Both the position numbers and the translations under genes were made by a program. Positions 996 to 9,625 of a stretch of DNA of 9,625 bases are shown piece after piece. Positions within the stretch are counted from its first letter, which is position 1. Every line of letters begins with the position of its first letter. The notes below the pieces were generated by a model. The model made no database searches. It saw only the letters and a list, made by a program, of their open reading frames with translations, and was not told where the DNA came from. The DNA is from a virus. Taxonomy: Duplodnaviria > Heunggongvirae > Uroviricota > Caudoviricetes. The stretch lies in IMG/VR virus record IMGVR_UViG_2740892370_000019; one strand, 5' to 3'.

Positions 996-1379
996 TCAAC
1001 CAATCAACTTATAGCGACCATCCCGTGCATTGCGACGTACACGCTCAATCTTGAGGCATAGCGCCGCATCTGGCTTTTTTGGGACAGGTACGCGGCAATA
1101 TTCAGAAGCTCGAGGAATATTGTTTATCCAGTCGATCACTTCACTTAAATACCAGGCCTTACGCCCTTCCGTAACCTGTACGCGTTCGGGGAACTCTCCG
1201 CGAGCCTCAAGGTTTAGCAATGTGCGACGGCTAAGGGTAGTAAGTTCCATCACCTGATTCATATCAACAAGGCGTTCACTTAAACGCATTTTGTCAGCAA
1301 TAGCCTTTAATTCCTCTACTGCTGGATCCGGATACATCATTTCGGCAATTGGCTTAAGGTCATTGTAATGATTCTGCAT
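996..1379 (-). CDS. AlpA-family (phage excisionase/regulator-like) HTH protein with N- and C-terminal extensions, 127 aa
   Basis: The central segment LTTLSRRTLLNLEARGEFPERVQVTEGRKAWYLSEVIDWI fits the AlpA/Xis-type winged-helix signature (hydrophobic HTH, GxFP, R..W..SEV..W). The ATG at 1379 is preceded by AGGGGG at 6 nt and sits 11 nt after the stop of the upstream decoration gene, suggesting coupled expression. The stop abuts the cos site. Confidence 0.65.
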   Translation of the reverse strand: MQNHYNDLKPIAEMMYPDPAVEELKAIADKMRLSERLVDMNQVMELTTLSRRTLLNLEARGEFPERVQVTEGRKAWYLSEVIDWINNIPRASEYCRVPVPKKPDAALCLKIERVRRNARDGRYKLIG

Positions 1380-4047: not shown

Positions 4048-6171
4048 TTAATCTTCTGCCTCAGGCTGGAACATCAGCACGTAAAAAACATGCTGCTTCC
4101 CCCCAATTTTGCCGAGAGCCTTTTTCTTGTAACGGCGATCGTTACCCGCTTCCAGCATTCCGGCAGCACTCAACGCGCGGGCAAAGTGGGACGGGTTAAA
4201 TCCCTGTGCGATCTCCCCCTCAAACACATGAGGAAACGTGTAAAAACGGAACTCATCATCTTCATTTCTGATACTCCCCTTTCTGTATCCGGCAAGGTCT
4301 TTAATCGGTAAATCACGTTCATCACTGTTTGGGTAAGGAAGGTATCGACTGAACCCGAACGACGACAAAAACGCCTCAGCCTGTTCAACCATCTGTTTAA
4401 ATTCCCTGTTACCCGTGCCGAACTCCTTCACCCAGGCATTAAAGTTATGCTGTATTGCGTCCCGGCATTCCTGCGCGGCCCAGCCAGTTACATGACCGGA
4501 AAGCACAAGCGCGGCCTCCAGTATGGCGAAACGCTCACCCACGCGGTGGACCTGCTCGCCGTAGCTCTCCGGTATCAGGTTGCGCCACCGTTCGCGGCAT
4601 TCCCTTACCGTATCCTTTGCCTCCTGCTGGTGGCCTGCCAGCCATTTAACCCACTCACGACCCGCTGCCCCGTGATTTTCTGTCCAGGCATCCTTTAACG
4701 CGTCTGCGTGCGCCTTTCCGGTGCTGTATTCGTGAAAGTGCGTGGCTTTTTCCATCGGAACGTTAAGCAGGCGGACAAGCTGCCCCGCTTTGACTTTTAT
4801 CCCCTCCGTTTTGAGGAATGTCTCAACGTCCATTTCTCCGGTGCTGATTGCCACCGTGCGCCAGTGTTTTATCTCCCGGTTGCCGCCGTCCTTCGCCCCC
4901 TGTAATTTCCCGGAACCGTTAAACAACGTATAGGCTGACGTGGACACCTCCCGCGCGTTTCCGGCCTGGCCTATTTCATCCAGGGGTAACAGCCCGTCGT
5001 TGTGCGCCTCTGCCTCGTTAGCGATACCTAACGCTGTGCCGTACCAGGTCAGCCGTTGTGCGTCCGGCTCTCCCCATAAACTTGATGCGATGTTCTGCGT
5101 GGTGGTTTTCCCTGCCGATGACTGTTCGAAAAGATGTACCCCGAAGCCGTCAGCACCAACAAGGCCAATCAAAGGTGCTGCCAGTGACGTGGCAACACCC
5201 AGCATCATGGACGGATTGCCACCAGCCAGCCGCGCCACGCAGTCGCGCCAGCCCTCCGCCGTACCCGCAACCGAATAGCCATTAACAGCGGCACTTTTTC
5301 CGGTAAACAGGATCGGTTTTTCAGAATCACCAATGATTGAGCCGTCCGGCATGATATACGCGCCAAAATGCCAGCCCGTTGTTGTGCTTAGCTGCCATTC
5401 CTCATGGCTTCCGCTTAACTGCATCCAGTCAGCCAGGATAGCCCTGTATTTGCCGTTTGTTGTCACGTTCAGCCCGTGATCTTTAAGCAACCGCCAGCCG
5501 TCACGGTCGCCAATGCCACCACACGGGATCGCCATTGTGATGACTTCATGGTTTGCTAATTTTTTCCAGCGCATCACGCGGTAATGCTCTTTACCGATCG
5601 TCCCCGTTCCCAGTAGTTCAAGCGGAGAACATAACCACGTCTCAGGCCGGATAATTTCGCCTGACTGCTTATCCACTTTGGGCGTTACCCAGAAAACACC
5701 ATCGACGCGACTTTCAACGCGGGGCTTTAATTCATCATCCTGATAGCATGGCTCTTTTTTCTTTACAGGCAGTTCAACTACCTTTTTCTTTTCCGCCTGC
5801 TCTGCCCGTTCACGTTCCAGATATTCGCGCCAGTTCTCCCGTTTCTGGCTGTGCATTCCTTCAGGGTAATAATCAGCATCCCTGACACCTGCCGCTGCCA
5901 GTTTCTGCCCGATGGTATTAACAAGCCCCGGACGCAATAACCCCGCCTGGTAGAGACGCACGCGATAGCGTCCGTCCGGTACGATTTGCAGGTTGTCCAG
6001 TTCGGCAAGTTGTTGCTCTCCAAGCCAGACAGGTGGCACGTTATCGCCAGCCAGTCGCCCGTCCTGTTCCTGCCACTGCTTCGCATGTGCCCACGCATCA
6101 CTACCCGCAAAAATGATGACTTCCGTCATTTTGTCACGCGGCTGGTGTTTTAAATTTGGCGCTTTTTTCAT
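4048..6171 (-). CDS. Replication protein, primase/helicase-like (P4 alpha / D5-type family assignment tentative), about 707 aa
   Basis: Large ORF with a central P-loop-like motif FEQSSAGKTT. It is the last gene of an operon beginning near the operator region and lies next to the iteron array, the layout expected for a satellite pri-rep gene. The track start at 6186 is a GTG; the ATG at 6171 (MKKAPNL...) has GGAGAG at about 8 nt and overlaps the stop of the upstream gene. Family membership was not verified. Confidence 0.75.
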   Translation of the reverse strand: MKKAPNLKHQPRDKMTEVIIFAGSDAWAHAKQWQEQDGRLAGDNVPPVWLGEQQLAELDNLQIVPDGRYRVRLYQAGLLRPGLVNTIGQKLAAAGVRDADYYPEGMHSQKRENWREYLERERAEQAEKKKVVELPVKKKEPCYQDDELKPRVESRVDGVFWVTPKVDKQSGEIIRPETWLCSPLELLGTGTIGKEHYRVMRWKKLANHEVITMAIPCGGIGDRDGWRLLKDHGLNVTTNGKYRAILADWMQLSGSHEEWQLSTTTGWHFGAYIMPDGSIIGDSEKPILFTGKSAAVNGYSVAGTAEGWRDCVARLAGGNPSMMLGVATSLAAPLIGLVGADGFGVHLFEQSSAGKTTTQNIASSLWGEPDAQRLTWYGTALGIANEAEAHNDGLLPLDEIGQAGNAREVSTSAYTLFNGSGKLQGAKDGGNREIKHWRTVAISTGEMDVETFLKTEGIKVKAGQLVRLLNVPMEKATHFHEYSTGKAHADALKDAWTENHGAAGREWVKWLAGHQQEAKDTVRECRERWRNLIPESYGEQVHRVGERFAILEAALVLSGHVTGWAAQECRDAIQHNFNAWVKEFGTGNREFKQMVEQAEAFLSSFGFSRYLPYPNSDERDLPIKDLAGYRKGSIRNEDDEFRFYTFPHVFEGEIAQGFNPSHFARALSAAGMLEAGNDRRYKKKALGKIGGKQHVFYVLMFQPEAED

Positions 6172-6467
6172 TTCTGCTCTCTCCACGCGGCAATCATGTT
6201 TTTCAGTTCCTGTAGTTTTTTATCAACATCCATACATGACACATGGTTATTTCTGGAAGGCGGGATTTCCCGCCGGAATCTGCAAATAAAGATCTCCACG
6301 TTCAGCGAGCTATGAAATGAATAGCCATCACGAATAAAATACACACGGTCAAACATTATCGATTTTACTGTTACTCTGTTGCCGTTCTTATCCCAATAAA
6401 TAGCGCCGGGGATAATTTTGGGGTGTGCATAACCGCTGGCAGTCAAGCCAGATAAATATGTTCTCAT
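6168..6467 (-). CDS. Hypothetical protein (99 aa), AT-rich, coupled to the primase gene
   Basis: ATG at 6467 with GGGGA upstream; 6-nt gap from the preceding gene; stop overlaps the primase start. Visibly lower GC than the flanking primase gene. No family recognised. Confidence 0.6.
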   Translation of the reverse strand: MRTYLSGLTASGYAHPKIIPGAIYWDKNGNRVTVKSIMFDRVYFIRDGYSFHSSLNVEIFICRFRREIPPSRNNHVSCMDVDKKLQELKNMIAAWREQK

Positions 6468-6473
6468 GATTAT

Positions 6474-6794
6474 TTATCCCCGATTTGAATCAGTATTCGC
6501 TTTCTTTATGGCATTTAATGCATTTGTGGCATTTTCAATGGTGCACCGTAGCGAAATATCAAAATGCCCAAGCATTGCCAGTAACAAACCAATATTACCC
6601 ATATCAATGCGCATGGCCTTTTCGTCATAGTCCTCATTTTCTGACGCATGCCACATCAGGCTACCAATTGACGCAACAGCCATTGATATATTGTCAGTAG
6701 CCCCATCCGCAGCGGAATAAACCTTTTTAGCAATATCATGCTCACAGTTAAAATGCGGATTAATCAGGTACTGGTAATTTGACATATCAGGCAT
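6474..6794 (-). CDS. Hypothetical protein (106 aa), AT-rich
   Basis: The ATG at 6794 overlaps the stop of the upstream small ORF (ATGCCTGA overlap); compact operon arrangement. No family recognised. Confidence 0.6.
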   Translation of the reverse strand: MPDMSNYQYLINPHFNCEHDIAKKVYSAADGATDNISMAVASIGSLMWHASENEDYDEKAMRIDMGNIGLLLAMLGHFDISLRCTIENATNALNAIKKANTDSNRG

Positions 6795-6990
6795 GGAACA
6801 CCCCCTGACGAATACGGGCGGCGAATACCATCACGCAGCCAGCCGGGGATTGCTGGCGTGCTTCCTGTTCGCTGCTGGCCTCAATGGTAATCACGCGCGG
6901 TTGTGCCGTACTCAGGGCGATAAAACGCCAGATGTATTTATTCAGGTTGTGCGAGTCCCGCCCTTGCGGGTGTGTGGTATGATTTAGCAT
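6787..6990 (-). CDS. Hypothetical small protein (67 aa), first gene of the replication operon
   Basis: ATG at 6990 preceded by GAGGT at 5 nt; the stop overlaps the next gene start. The track shows this only as the C-terminal end of an implausible 367-aa read-through ORF. GC-rich, and an opposite-strand ORF (6793..6987) exists, so coding status is uncertain. Confidence 0.35.
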   Translation of the reverse strand: MLNHTTHPQGRDSHNLNKYIWRFIALSTAQPRVITIEASSEQEARQQSPAGCVMVFAARIRQGVFHA

Positions 6991-7087
6991 AGCTACCTCG
7001 ATAATCTTTCTATCGTTGGTGGTTAGAAGCCCGGTTAGTGTTAGCGCACTGCCGGGTTTCGTCGTTTCTGCACCTTGCATCAACAAG

Positions 7088-7160
7088 GTGTTAAACACCA
7101 ATTTAAGCCTAGGTGTTAAACACGTCAAGTGTTGAACACTTATTTTTTTTCCTGCATACT
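7088..7160. promoter_or_regulatory. Three palindromic operators with an overlapping candidate promoter for the plus-strand regulator gene
   Basis: GTGTTAAACAC at 7088..7098 and 7113..7123, and GTGTTGAACAC at 7129..7139; each has half-sites GTGTT/AACAC forming an inverted repeat. Centre spacings are about 25 and 16 bp. TTGAAC (7132..7137) lies inside the third operator, then a 17-bp spacer and CATACT (7155..7160), about 30 bp before the ATG at 7190. Confidence 0.55.
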
Positions 7161-7189
7161 GCATTTGTTTTTTGTAAGGGGTACACAAC

Positions 7190-7369
7190 ATGGCGACAAA
7201 AGCAGTAAACGCAAAATCACAAACAGTTGCGGCAAGGGTTCCGCATGAAGTTATGAACAATGTTGAGGCGGTAAAAATGCCTGGTGAAAGTACAGGGCAG
7301 TTTGTAACAGCAGCATTAAAGCGAGAAGTTGAATACCGCCAGCGTCGCAAGGCCAAAGAGCAGGAGTAA
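7190..7369 (+). CDS. Small ribbon-helix-helix-like DNA-binding protein (59 aa), candidate repressor
   Basis: Not in the ORF track (under 60 aa). MATKAVNAKSQTVAARVPHEVMNNVEAVKMPGESTGQFVTAALKREVEYRQRRKAKEQE: a TVAARVP beta-strand followed by two short helices fits the RHH (CopG/Arc-like) pattern. AAGGGG Shine-Dalgarno about 9 nt upstream; sits directly downstream of the operator triplet. Confidence 0.5.
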   Translation: MATKAVNAKSQTVAARVPHEVMNNVEAVKMPGESTGQFVTAALKREVEYRQRRKAKEQE

Positions 7370-7426
7370 CCATCACCAGCGCCGTGGTGCGGTGAACTGT
7401 GGCGCACAGGGTTACAGGTATCTACG

Positions 7427-7624
7427 ATGACTGACAAATCATTAAAGAAATTATCCTCATCCAGGGAAAAACAACGCAAAAACGCGGTAAGCGAACAAGA
7501 ACAGGAAAGATTCGCACCATGTGCGTTTGTCCTTGAGAAGTTCCTTAAAGAGTACAGGCGCACAAAAATGGGATCGCATACCTGGAAAACATCGCAGCAT
7601 GGCGATGCTAAAGAGCAGGAATAG
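7427..7624 (+). CDS. Hypothetical small basic protein (65 aa)
   Basis: ATG with AGG at about 7 nt; charged, Lys/Arg/Glu-rich composition. Lies between the RHH-like gene and the plus-strand terminator. An overlapping opposite-strand ORF (7457..7645) looks like low-complexity hydrophobic read-through. Confidence 0.3.
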   Translation: MTDKSLKKLSSSREKQRKNAVSEQEQERFAPCAFVLEKFLKEYRRTKMGSHTWKTSQHGDAKEQE

Positions 7625-7712
7625 CCCACCAGCAAGCCAGCACACTGATCACATTGCCCACCAGCCAGCAAATCGCTATGATGTTCGGGCTTATGTTTAG
7701 TGTTTTCCCATT

Positions 7713-7740
7713 GGCGACCGCCCCCGGTCGCCTTTGTTTT
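7713..7740 (+). terminator. Rho-independent terminator
   Basis: Perfect 8-bp GC-rich stem GGCGACCG (7713..7720) / CGGTCGCC (7725..7732) with loop CCCC, followed by TTTGTTTT (7733..7740). Placed where the plus-strand small genes converge on alpA. Confidence 0.65.
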
Positions 7741-7759
7741 ATGTGTCATATGCTCCCCT

Positions 7760-7969
7760 TTACGCTGCCTTTCCTGAATTAATGCGATCCCGGCTTTTAA
7801 CCCATTCCATAACCTCAGACTTAACCCAGCCAACCGAACGACCTCCAAGACTGATACGGGAGGGAAAGCGGCCTTGTTTTTCCATCTCATAACGAGTTGT
7901 ACGGCAAACGCCTGTTAGCTCTCTGCATTCTTTTTCACGGATTACACGATCTTCATTTATTTCGCGCAT
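7760..7969 (-). CDS. alpA: AlpA-family prophage regulatory protein (69 aa from the ATG at 7969; possible longer form from GTG at 8053)
   Basis: CRELTGVCRTTRYEMEKQGRFPSRISLGGRSVGWVKSEVMEWV matches the AlpA signature (HTH, G.FP, R.VGW..SEV.EW). Adjacent to and co-oriented with the integrase, as in CP4-57/P4-like elements. The track N-terminus starts at a GTG. Confidence 0.8.
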   Translation of the reverse strand: MREINEDRVIREKECRELTGVCRTTRYEMEKQGRFPSRISLGGRSVGWVKSEVMEWVKSRDRINSGKAA

Positions 7970-8386: not shown

Positions 8387-9625
8387 TCAAGAATTTTGGG
8401 TGTAAATTCGCGGGGTCATAACAACGATTTTTTCATCATTGTTCTGGAGAAGCTCGAGACGGTCTACCCATAGATTAAGAGCATCACGTTTTGCATCAAG
8501 ATAGCGGGAGTGGTTATAGACTCGTTGCATCCCTGGCATCTGGTGGGCTGTAAGCTGCTCGACAATATGCGGATCCACGCCTAAATCGTTCAGCATGGTT
8601 GTAAATGTGTGCCGGATATCGTGTAACGTCCAGGGGGCTTGATTAATTCGTCTGTGCGCTGTTCTTCCGTACTCTGCTACCGAAGATTGTCCTTTCAGTT
8701 CACCAAGCAATAAGCCCGTGTGTCTGTTCTGCTCCACCAGCTGCGTGATGAACGGCAAAATGCTTTCCGGTATTGGCCTGAATATGGCGACCTTCGTTTT
8801 GCTGTGCTCCTTCGGTACCGTCCAGAGCATTTCTTTAAAATCCCACTCCTGCACCTCAGAGCGCCTTAGCTCGGTGGTACGGCATCCGAAAACAATCAGG
8901 AGGCGAATTAGGGCGCTGTAGTACGGCGGGAATATTTTGTCATCCAGGGCGCGGAGTAATTCCCCAAGCTCCTTGTTTGTTAGTACGCGCTCGCTCACTT
9001 CTGCTTTTTTTCCCACATCACCGACAACCATATCATCAAGAACGTTGCTGATTGCGTATCGTCGTTTTCGGCAGTACTTAAGCGCCTGTTTGCATACCTG
9101 TAGCAAAAATCCGGCAGATACTGGGCTTCGCTTTGCCATCTGGTCAAAACATGCCAACCAGTGCCGTAGCTCGCATTTTTCCAACGGCAAAGCGCCAATC
9201 TGGCTGATTATGTGTTTATTGATCCGGCTTTTCAGTGATTCGTAGTCAGTGCGCTTTTCCTTTGCATACGATTCAAGCCAGTAAGTGAGCGCTTCCTTAA
9301 CTGTCACGGGGGCTAACGCATCCTGTACAGCACGATTAAGCTCATAGCGCGGATTTTTCCCCTCAGCCAGCCAGGCGCGACACTGTGCTGCTATTTCCCT
9401 GGCTGCTTTCAGGCTCAGATCGGGATAATTGCCCAGTCTCAGACGTTCCGGTGATACCTGCCTACCAGTTCCGGCCCTGTAAGTGAAATACCAGGTTAAC
9501 AGGCCGCTGGTGGAATGTCTTACGCTAAGATTGCCACCGTCATTAAAAAAGGCGTTTTTTGTGGTTGGTGATCCGCTTAATTTTCGTAAAAGAGTGTCGC
9601 TAAGTCTATGAATTGCGCTGCTCAT
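8387..9625 (-). CDS. int: Tyrosine site-specific integrase, P4-type (412 aa)
   Basis: Full-length ORF with the start at the window edge. The C-terminal catalytic region contains LHDIRHTFTT and ...GMQRVYNHSRYLD (His-x-x-Arg and the catalytic Tyr context). Size and the adjacent alpA are typical of P4-like integrase modules. Confidence 0.9.
   Translation of the reverse strand: MSSAIHRLSDTLLRKLSGSPTTKNAFFNDGGNLSVRHSTSGLLTWYFTYRAGTGRQVSPERLRLGNYPDLSLKAAREIAAQCRAWLAEGKNPRYELNRAVQDALAPVTVKEALTYWLESYAKEKRTDYESLKSRINKHIISQIGALPLEKCELRHWLACFDQMAKRSPVSAGFLLQVCKQALKYCRKRRYAISNVLDDMVVGDVGKKAEVSERVLTNKELGELLRALDDKIFPPYYSALIRLLIVFGCRTTELRRSEVQEWDFKEMLWTVPKEHSKTKVAIFRPIPESILPFITQLVEQNRHTGLLLGELKGQSSVAEYGRTAHRRINQAPWTLHDIRHTFTTMLNDLGVDPHIVEQLTAHQMPGMQRVYNHSRYLDAKRDALNLWVDRLELLQNNDEKIVVMTPRIYTQNS

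Follow-up and report, generated by a model that had tools for sequence, protein, structure and literature searches.

The DNA analyzed here is a 9,625-nt stretch from IMG/VR virus record IMGVR_UViG_2740892370_000019, termed the window throughout, and coordinates refer to it unless another locus is named. Judged by gene content, the window represents an almost whole Gram-negative phage-inducible chromosomal island (PICI) of the EcCICFT073 type, and upstream of its leftward replication operon it carries three copies of a short palindrome next to a 59-aa gene of the YlcI/YnfO family. On comparative grounds, this gene probably encodes an autoregulated ribbon-helix-helix (RHH) repressor of the replication operon, and gene and operators together would form a swappable immunity cassette. 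The switch looks like the unrecognised "off switch" of the Gram-negative PICI class, an interpretation that is largely, if incompletely, supported by independent comparative evidence.

The divergent gap and its palindromes

The palindrome GTGTTNAACAC occurs exactly three times in the window, at 7088-7098, 7113-7123, and 7129-7139, with all three copies inside 52 bp of the 199-bp gap that separates two divergent genes, the icd-like gene on the minus strand and the 59-aa open reading frame (ORF) on the plus strand. No further match was found in the 9625-bp window when 1 mismatch was tolerated. Against these three exact matches, 200 dinucleotide-preserving shuffles gave an expectation of 0.01, and none of the 200 contained three or more. 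The predicted operators O1-O3 are thus non-random, chance being excluded by the shuffle count, and the three near-identical 11-bp palindromes reported in the divergent region by the first-pass annotation are confirmed. The window sites share the flanked form (A)GGTGTTAAACAC(C), and their centre-to-centre spacings are 25 bp and then 16 bp. The features of the gap and of the genes that border it are:

7088..7098, no strand: operator O1 (predicted), GTGTTAAACAC; with flanks GGTGTTAAACACC, 7087-7099
7113..7123, no strand: operator O2 (predicted), GTGTTAAACAC; occupies the PL spacer and touches the PL -35
7129..7139, no strand: operator O3 (predicted), GTGTTGAACAC; abuts the PL -35 on its upstream edge and includes the PR -35 TTGAAC
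7100..7128, minus strand: PL, predicted leftward promoter of the icd-like/primase operon; -35 TTGACG (7128-7123), 17-nt spacer, -10 TAAATT (7105-7100)
7132..7160, plus strand: PR, predicted rightward promoter of the regulator gene; -35 TTGAAC (7132-7137), 17-nt spacer, -10 CATACT (7155-7160)
7190..7369, plus strand: YlcI/YnfO-family gene, 59 aa, predicted RHH repressor; ATG start, with Shine-Dalgarno AAGGGG at 7176-7181, eight bases before the ATG
6787..6990, minus strand: icd-like gene, 67 aa, first in the leftward operon that the repressor would control; true start 6990, RefSeq WP_032162870.1

PL was found by a promoter scanner on the minus strand as a 9/12 match to the sigma-70 consensus, and O1 begins 2 bp past its predicted -10 and covers its predicted start (~7093). 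The best minus-strand sigma-70 match lies at the same position in 31 of 33 related loci, with scores of 8-10 of 12, and the EcCICFT073 equivalent reads TTGACG-18-TATAGT. PR falls under the threshold of the scanner and was spotted by eye (8/12); the position of its -10 is kept in most relatives, usually as TATACT, with one-base variants that include TATAAT, TATATT, and TATTCT. Two other features of the region were set aside. A 367-aa minus-strand ORF (6787-7890) across the whole switch is an ORF-finder artefact, generated because the icd-like frame stays open above its true start, and a 12-nt inverted repeat that would pair the 5' untranslated region of the regulator (7157-68) with codons 3-6 (7196-7207) is no more stable than shuffled sequence (z = 0.2).

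The comparison set consisted of 31 loci from one genome per species, together with E. coli recombinants, EcCICFT073, and contigs encoding chosen homologues; site positions, counted from the regulator ATG in a scan that allowed 3 mismatches, were tabulated for 32 loci of ~15 genera. Across loci the general site formula is GTG-N5-CAC. The equivalent of O1 lies at ~-102 (range -98 to -112) in 31 of the 32, and the equivalent of O2, at -76 to -80 and mostly at -77, is found in every one and directly abuts a GTCAA/TTGAC -35. In most relatives a third site is located at -31 to -35, mostly -32, just past the PR -10, and all three sites are detectable in 29/32 loci. The window, L002, and L035 have no -32 site; in L009, the O1 and O3 copies lie just beyond the 3-mismatch scan and are visible by eye. 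Members of the window clade (E. coli, Edwardsiella, Pectobacterium, Kosakonia) carry an additional site at -61, which is O3 in the window; the -32 site is lost in the E. coli and Edwardsiella members, and the Pectobacterium and Kosakonia members retain both. The earlier remark that the third site overlaps a candidate -35 therefore applies to the window, where TTGAAC lies inside O3, and to a position peculiar to its clade. Within the 32 loci, two sites cover the leftward promoter and the third covers the regulator's own promoter, an overlap with both divergent promoters that is most naturally read as repression of the replication operon combined with negative autoregulation.

The 59-aa protein, its predicted sites, and their natural exchange

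Judged by its conservation, the 59-aa ORF is a real gene. Its product matches the NCBIfam model NF041551 (YlcI/YnfO) at 59.7 bits against a cutoff of 30 (E = 2.1e-16), with residues 9-50 spanning the entire 42-position model, and matches phrog_949 at 5e-22. The 74 homologues found at E <= 1e-3 come from Enterobacterales, among them Escherichia, Salmonella, Klebsiella, Pectobacterium, Serratia, Proteus, and Xenorhabdus, and the family is small, with 81 clusters (50% identity) among 1.84 billion representatives. Invariant positions in the homologue alignment are M1A2T3, N7, K9, S10, R16, H19, G32E33S34, and Q37F38, and residues 11-15 are conspicuously variable. The gene was said at first to have been missed by the ORF track; RefSeq carries it as WP_000201462.1 (YlcI/YnfO family, function unknown), and the omission is therefore limited to the track used for that annotation. 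A tblastn search of 50,697 phage records with the window protein found no close relative, which makes the window clade look specific to satellites and islands.

That the protein is RHH-like, as the first-pass annotation had it, is likely but not proven. The AlphaFold2 monomer (mean predicted local distance difference test score 80) has a flexible N-terminus followed by helices 19-28 and 35-58, and RHH proteins account for all of its best fold matches, whose scores are low, with none significant in Foldseek against the PDB. Alignment to Arc by hhalign has a probability of 5%, yet it falls in the expected register, placing K9-V21 on Arc K6-V18, so that the Arc DNA readers Q9/N11/R13 equate to T12/A14/R16. 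A sequence profile search of the PDB returned nothing relevant, and no Pfam RHH, Arc or CopG model matched at E <= 0.1; a sub-threshold Pfam match to Med10 was judged spurious. It is because Foldseek and sequence searches of the PDB gave no significant match, and because neither a curated RHH model nor a solved RHH sequence places the protein in the superfamily, that the assignment is graded as unproven.

The variable residues of the protein and the variable bases of its sites change together. The N5 core is common to all copies in a locus, and between loci it shifts with residues 11-15 of the adjacent protein, which are the predicted DNA-reading strand and define at least 12 predicted specificity classes:

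QT[VLI]AA: core TT[AG]AA
QSLKS and QALKA (QALKA in EcCICFT073): core TGG[CT]C
QALRA: core GTCTA
[KR]KLEA: core TCAGC
KKIDV: core TCAGA
KRFDV: core TCGGA
QKTSV: core nnGGA
QK[VL]Q[AT]: core GAnTC
QS[LV]TA: core xCTTA
QLTTV: core TGTTT
QKMSA and QKIQA, with N-terminal arms MTRDNVNN / MTRDHINK, not MATKAVNA: outer arms CTG..CAG, not GTG..CAC

Information about site class is highest at residue 14 (2.25 of 2.5 bits), followed by residues 5, 13, 4, and 12. With site classes assigned by eye ahead of the formal test, core identity correlated with identity at residues 11-15 (Mantel r = 0.56; 0/5000 permutations as high), and the correlation was 0.45 when residues 19-50 were controlled for, as against 0.13 for the reverse partial test. 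Three predictions made in advance were borne out: KKLEA in E. coli had TCAGC, QSVTA had TCTTA, and KRFDV, found beside a KilA-N gene in a Salmonella-type contig, had TCGGA. Set side by side, KKLEA/TCAGC, KKIDV/TCAGA, and KRFDV/TCGGA suggest a pairing of residue 12 with position 3 of the core and of residues 14-15 with position 5. Some E. coli islands encode a 101-aa YlcI/YnfO variant (L033, 2888-3193; L034, 2897-3202) with the same RHH-like N-terminal part and a C-terminal extension of ~40 residues, and these variants have operator classes of their own (xCTTA; TGTTT).

Natural swaps separate the sites from the other genes of the region, as in three arrangements:

Window: Icd-like type A; regulator type 1; sites type 1; AlpA x; replicase DUF927
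L033: Icd-like type A (92% nt); regulator type 2 (101 aa, QSLTA); sites type 2; AlpA y; replicase RepA
L035: Icd-like type B; regulator type 1 (97% aa); sites type 1, near-identical; AlpA y; replicase RepA

The window and L035 have the regulator and sites in common and differ in the icd-like gene, AlpA, replicase, and integrase. L033 and L035, on the other hand, are 98% identical in nucleotide sequence over the small ORF, alpA, and int, and 82-92% identical over the RepA-type replicase, and differ in regulator and sites. EcCICFT073 encodes nearly the same Icd-like protein as the window, and its sites and strand sequence differ. From these three-way swaps it follows that the sites track the YlcI-like gene only, and not the Icd-like protein, AlpA, the small ORF or the replicase. 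In L040 (167-1377), a KRFDV/GTG-TCGGA-CAC module adjoins a 302-aa KilA-N gene, and both the icd-like gene and the antisense-RNA hairpin described below are absent, a context that argues for a cassette portable between settings.

A candidate antisense RNA, the proposed switch, and its alternatives

Between O1 and the icd-like start lies a feature that the first-pass annotation overlooked, a candidate antisense RNA that would add a second control layer on the leftward operon. It is listed here with the remaining elements of the switch:

6991..7070, plus strand: candidate cis-antisense small RNA; two hairpins, the second with a U-run
4048..6794, minus strand: rest of the leftward operon; hypothetical gene 6474-6794, DUF4222 6168-6467, DUF927 primase/helicase 4048-6186
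7427..7624, plus strand: conserved 65-aa ORF, phrog_21027 at 4e-46; presumably co-transcribed with the regulator
7713..7732, plus strand: intrinsic terminator-like hairpin 3' of the 65-aa ORF, GGCGACCGCCCCCGGTCGCC then TTTGTTTTAT; T-run on the plus strand only
7760..7969, minus strand: alpA, AlpA-family helix-turn-helix (HTH) gene; same orientation as the leftward operon, and convergent on the regulator cassette

The candidate RNA is complementary to the leader and Shine-Dalgarno sequence of the icd-like mRNA, and an extended -10 (TGgTATGAT) is located at 6975-6983. In a 26-locus alignment the region folds into two hairpins, with compensatory changes in 16/24 pairs. On the plus strand 96% of cells are paired, a value that falls to 37-50% when the structure is slid a few columns, and 0/500 shuffles match any of the measures. 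Read on the minus strand, the same pairs are 81% standard, with 93 cells G.U, which makes the plus strand the most likely source of the RNA. At a relaxed Rfam threshold, the plus strand gives a full-length match to SymR (RF01809) at 6991-7063 (34.1 bits, E = 3e-4), and the match recurs in L044 and L010, with scores across the three of 34.1, 32.4, and 28.5 bits. These are below the SymR gathering score of 61, so that the RNA is not a curated member of any Rfam family, and neither C4 nor isrK, the immunity RNA families of P4 and P1, matched the region at E <= 1.

Two observations on this RNA come from other loci. In L010, L014, L019, L026, and L027 (Xenorhabdus-type), TTTGGTTAGAC lies ahead of the terminator hairpin of the antisense RNA and is repeated ~45 nt inside the leftward gene; it could be the promoter of the RNA or a second target sequence. 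The E. coli island L038 (1640-2064) carries a second copy of the hairpin 3' of the first cassette and, after it, a different 59-aa RHH ORF that is Arc-like (PFQFRLDPDLREKME) and has a TGTGTATATACACA palindrome of its own, an arrangement that looks like tandem or remnant immunity modules.

In the proposed mechanism, a dimer of the 59-aa RHH protein would bind the three GTG-N5-CAC sites, with strand residues 11-15, chiefly 12 and 14, reading the variable 5-bp core, and with the conserved N-terminal arm and R16 appearing to read the conserved GTG/CAC arms. Because O1 and O2 are located on the PL start and on its spacer and -35, their occupancy would shut RNA polymerase out of PL and keep the icd-like/DUF4222/primase operon, the replication module, off. 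Occupancy of O3 on the PR -35 would in turn limit synthesis of the repressor by negative autoregulation, and the antisense RNA would stop translation of any leaky icd-like message. Operators and gene would thereby constitute one exchangeable immunity cassette. We infer the sign of regulation, the binding, and the route of relief, as well as the ability of the protein alone to keep the element quiescent. Of the earlier picture of an autoregulated repressor acting on these operators, the link between operators and 59-aa protein is supported by the covariation of core and strand and by the swaps, and autoregulated repression is the natural reading of the overlap with both promoters; the antisense RNA is a part that it lacked.

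Relief may be indirect. Wherever alpA is included in the examined loci, it lies downstream of the cassette, convergent on it and in the orientation of the operon; this arrangement, the T-run confined to the plus strand, and the analogy to PLL-vis-eta-alpha of P4 are the basis for a read-through model. AlpA induced by a helper phage would drive transcription leftward from the alpA promoter, which would run antisense to the regulator gene as it crossed the cassette and then continue into the operon. Such read-through would both bypass PL and damp repressor synthesis. Helper phages are known to induce alpA, and AlpA activates its own promoter and downstream genes (PMC6092414). A helper-encoded antirepressor is a possible second route. 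A LexA/CI-type SOS-cleavable repressor was considered and rejected: the 59-aa protein has no S24 peptidase or other cleavable domain and no LexA box (CTGT-N8-ACAG) was found near 6990-7190, so that direct SOS control is unlikely. To this extent the first reading, in which relief could not be read from the sequence, stands.

Several points weigh against the proposed mechanism. No paper found in the open-access literature gives a function to YlcI/YnfO or DUF3950 or reports an experiment on any family member. The consensus match of PR is only 8/12, the covariation classes are phylogenetically non-independent as well as assigned by eye, and the 25- and 16-bp spacings of the sites are unlike the adjacent-dimer geometry of Arc, MetJ or CopG. 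Furthermore, EcCICFT073 cannot be induced in the absence of AlpA, and over-expressing AlpA is by itself enough to trigger excision and replication, with no repressor phenotype reported (PMC6092414). Since over-expression of AlpA is sufficient and no repressor phenotype is on record, the repressor may be a modulator and not the master switch. These data on AlpA also speak for an alternative, itself unlikely, in which the 59-aa protein does bind the sites without being what maintains repression: its effect would be a passing one of the Arc or Cro kind, or even activation at one of the promoters, and quiescence would come from the absence of AlpA combined with the antisense RNA. The RNA would be an independent brake on the operon, and Arc of P22 provides a precedent for an RHH protein as a post-infection shut-off. 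The gene is, however, divergent from the operon it would control, an arrangement that is Mnt-like and not Arc-like; the geometry is that of repression, with sites on the PL start and spacer in every locus; and there is a site on the regulator's own promoter, as expected of a steady-state autoregulated repressor.

The palindromes could instead be bound by AlpA, by the Icd-like protein, by the product of the 65-aa ORF, or by a primase or Rep protein for which they serve as origin iterons, the 59-aa gene being a bystander. The P4 alpha protein binds repeated octamers at the P4 origin, and phrog_6196, which the Icd-like protein matches, is labelled 'transcriptional repressor'. AlpA, moreover, binds DNA and in this island type activates downstream genes (PMC6092414). 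Readings of the palindromes as origin iterons, AlpA sites or Icd sites are ruled out by the natural swaps: the window has its Icd-like region, but not its sites, in common with L033 and with CFT073; L033 and L035 have different sites despite identical AlpA and small-ORF proteins; and the window and L035 have identical sites despite replicases of different families (DUF927 in the window, RepA in L035). The module is also found beside a KilA-N gene without an icd-like gene, and it is in the predicted DNA-reading strand that the information on site class is concentrated, so that another binder is altogether very improbable. Still harder to credit is a role for the repeats as RNA, in the form of small leader hairpins or an attenuator, or their origin by chance or as a recombination relic. 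On the minus strand, a scanner did report a weak terminator-like hairpin at O1, but the 5-bp cores of most other classes are not self-complementary (GTG-TCAGC-CAC, for instance), so that no hairpin is conserved and the terminator reading of O1 was discarded; the sites do keep their position and copy number, both predicted start sites are downstream of O2 and O3, and the shuffles exclude chance. An autoregulated RHH repressor is the preferred reading.

Island context, comparable systems, and significance

The window is a 100% match to a ~10-kb island between cspD/yljB and clpS in an E. coli chromosome, and parts of the region occur in 1461 of 5426 complete E. coli genomes. Its size (~10 kb), its chromosomal site, and its content of int, alpA, a replication module (DUF4222, primase, single-stranded DNA-binding protein), and capsid-related and terS-like genes are those of a PICI. 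After int and alpA come the 65-aa and 59-aa ORFs on the plus strand, and then only minus-strand genes, in the order icd-like, hypothetical, DUF4222, DUF927 primase, hypothetical, single-stranded DNA-binding protein, major capsid, head decoration, a second AlpA-like HTH gene, and terS-like. The genes outside the switch are positioned as follows:

8387-9625, minus strand: int, first in the island gene order
1742-2869: major capsid homologue
1391-1732: head decoration homologue
252-797: terS-like gene

The terS-like gene is immediately preceded by the second AlpA-family HTH gene (127 aa, 996-1379, minus strand; phrog_2790 at 1.8e-48), which may regulate the packaging module separately. EcCICFT073, from CFT073, has the same gene order as the window, including the YlcI-like, Icd-like, major capsid, and head decoration genes, and its 59-aa YlcI/YnfO-family gene (C_RS30120, WP_000190587.1) is divergent from an Icd-like gene almost identical to that of the window. 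The slot of the 65-aa ORF is occupied by differing genes among loci; the window protein and its EcCICFT073 homologue have the motif ERFAPCAF.LE.FLKEYR in common. Helper-dependent induction, replication, and packaging have been published only for EcCICFT073 (PMC6092414).

Of the known switches, the nearest in function and topology are Mnt/Arc in immI of P22 and the Stl repressor. Mnt/Arc has the layout that is predicted for the window, with a small RHH repressor gene divergent from a silenced operon, short symmetric operators over back-to-back divergent promoters (Pant/Pmnt), and a few beta-strand residues that set specificity; the strand register of the hhalign alignment is that of Arc. The window protein differs in having no detectable sequence homology to these proteins by Pfam (Arc/RHH) or hhalign, the window has three separated single sites where P22 has one operator of two adjacent half-sites, and the target is a satellite replication operon in place of an antirepressor gene. 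With Stl (Rpr) of the Staphylococcus aureus pathogenicity islands and other Gram-positive PICIs, the regulator shares its map place, between int and the replication module and divergent from that module as in the stl-str pair, and its proposed role, that of silencing replication and packaging genes as long as no helper phage is active (PMC6092414). Stl proteins, however, are larger HTH repressors relieved by the binding of helper proteins, whereas the window protein is a 59-aa predicted RHH protein with no obvious partner-binding domain, in an island type that is triggered by helper-dependent expression of the activator AlpA.

The immunity regions of P4 (PLE, PLL, vis, eta, CI RNA) and P1 (c4-icd-ant) resemble the window in that an alpA homologue precedes, on the same strand, an operon running from an icd/eta-like gene to a primase, with a small RNA encoded in the leader. 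In P4, the late promoter PLL upstream of the alpA homologue vis reads through into the alpha primase operon (PMC10111431). P4 immunity is purely a matter of RNA-mediated premature termination, unlike the window, where a predicted protein-repressor cassette in the opposite orientation stands between alpA and the icd-like gene, and the RNA of the window matches SymR only, below threshold. The candidate antisense RNA resembles SymR/SymE, and more loosely P1 c4-icd and P4 CI: its match spans the whole SymR model, its two hairpins have the shape of those of SymR, with very similar loops, and like SymR of symE-symR it lies opposite the 5' leader and ribosome-binding site of a small gene that is potentially toxic. 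It differs in its score (28-34 bits) and in its target, an Icd-like gene and not SymE. The namesakes of NF041551, YlcI of DLP12 and YnfO of Qin, are found in E. coli K-12, where YlcI is a distant relative with an RHH-like N-terminus (RNIRFPNQMIEQIN). In K-12, unlike the window, ylcI (L048 4252-4446) is divergent from nohD across the cos region of the lambdoid prophage DLP12, and no comparable triple site was seen upstream of it.

No open-access paper was found that describes an RHH repressor or its operators in Gram-negative PICIs, and the module of small ORFs that fills the gap between alpA and the replication genes is undiscussed in open-access PICI papers beyond one family-name listing, a 2026 survey that names 'YlcI/YnfO, prophage-associated protein' among the accessory genes of Enterobacter capsid-forming PICIs. 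The 'putative transcriptional repressor' of EcCIMP1 (PMC11773190) was considered as a counterpart and is an unrelated PerC-family protein. Gram-positive PICIs are defined by the master repressor Stl, which helper proteins inactivate; for Gram-negative PICIs, their founding paper called the global repressor unclear and the different induction strategy a mystery (PMC6092414). The full proposition, in which Gram-negative PICIs, EcCICFT073 included, have a YlcI/YnfO-like RHH protein as their master repressor, with specificity in two or three strand residues (residue 12 K/R with core position 3 A/G; residues 14-15 EA/DV with position 5 C/A), indirect AlpA-driven relief, and a SymR-like fail-safe on the Icd-like gene, is possible as a whole but on balance doubtful.

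Should the protein prove to be the maintenance repressor, the YlcI/YnfO family, to date uncharacterised, would gain a function, and the natural protein/operator pairs, at least 12 in number, would be a ready set of small repressors that are probably orthogonal, as well as a compact data set for the RHH recognition code. The protein would also provide a direct handle on quiescence, on immunity between satellites, and on the engineering of PICI-based delivery vehicles.

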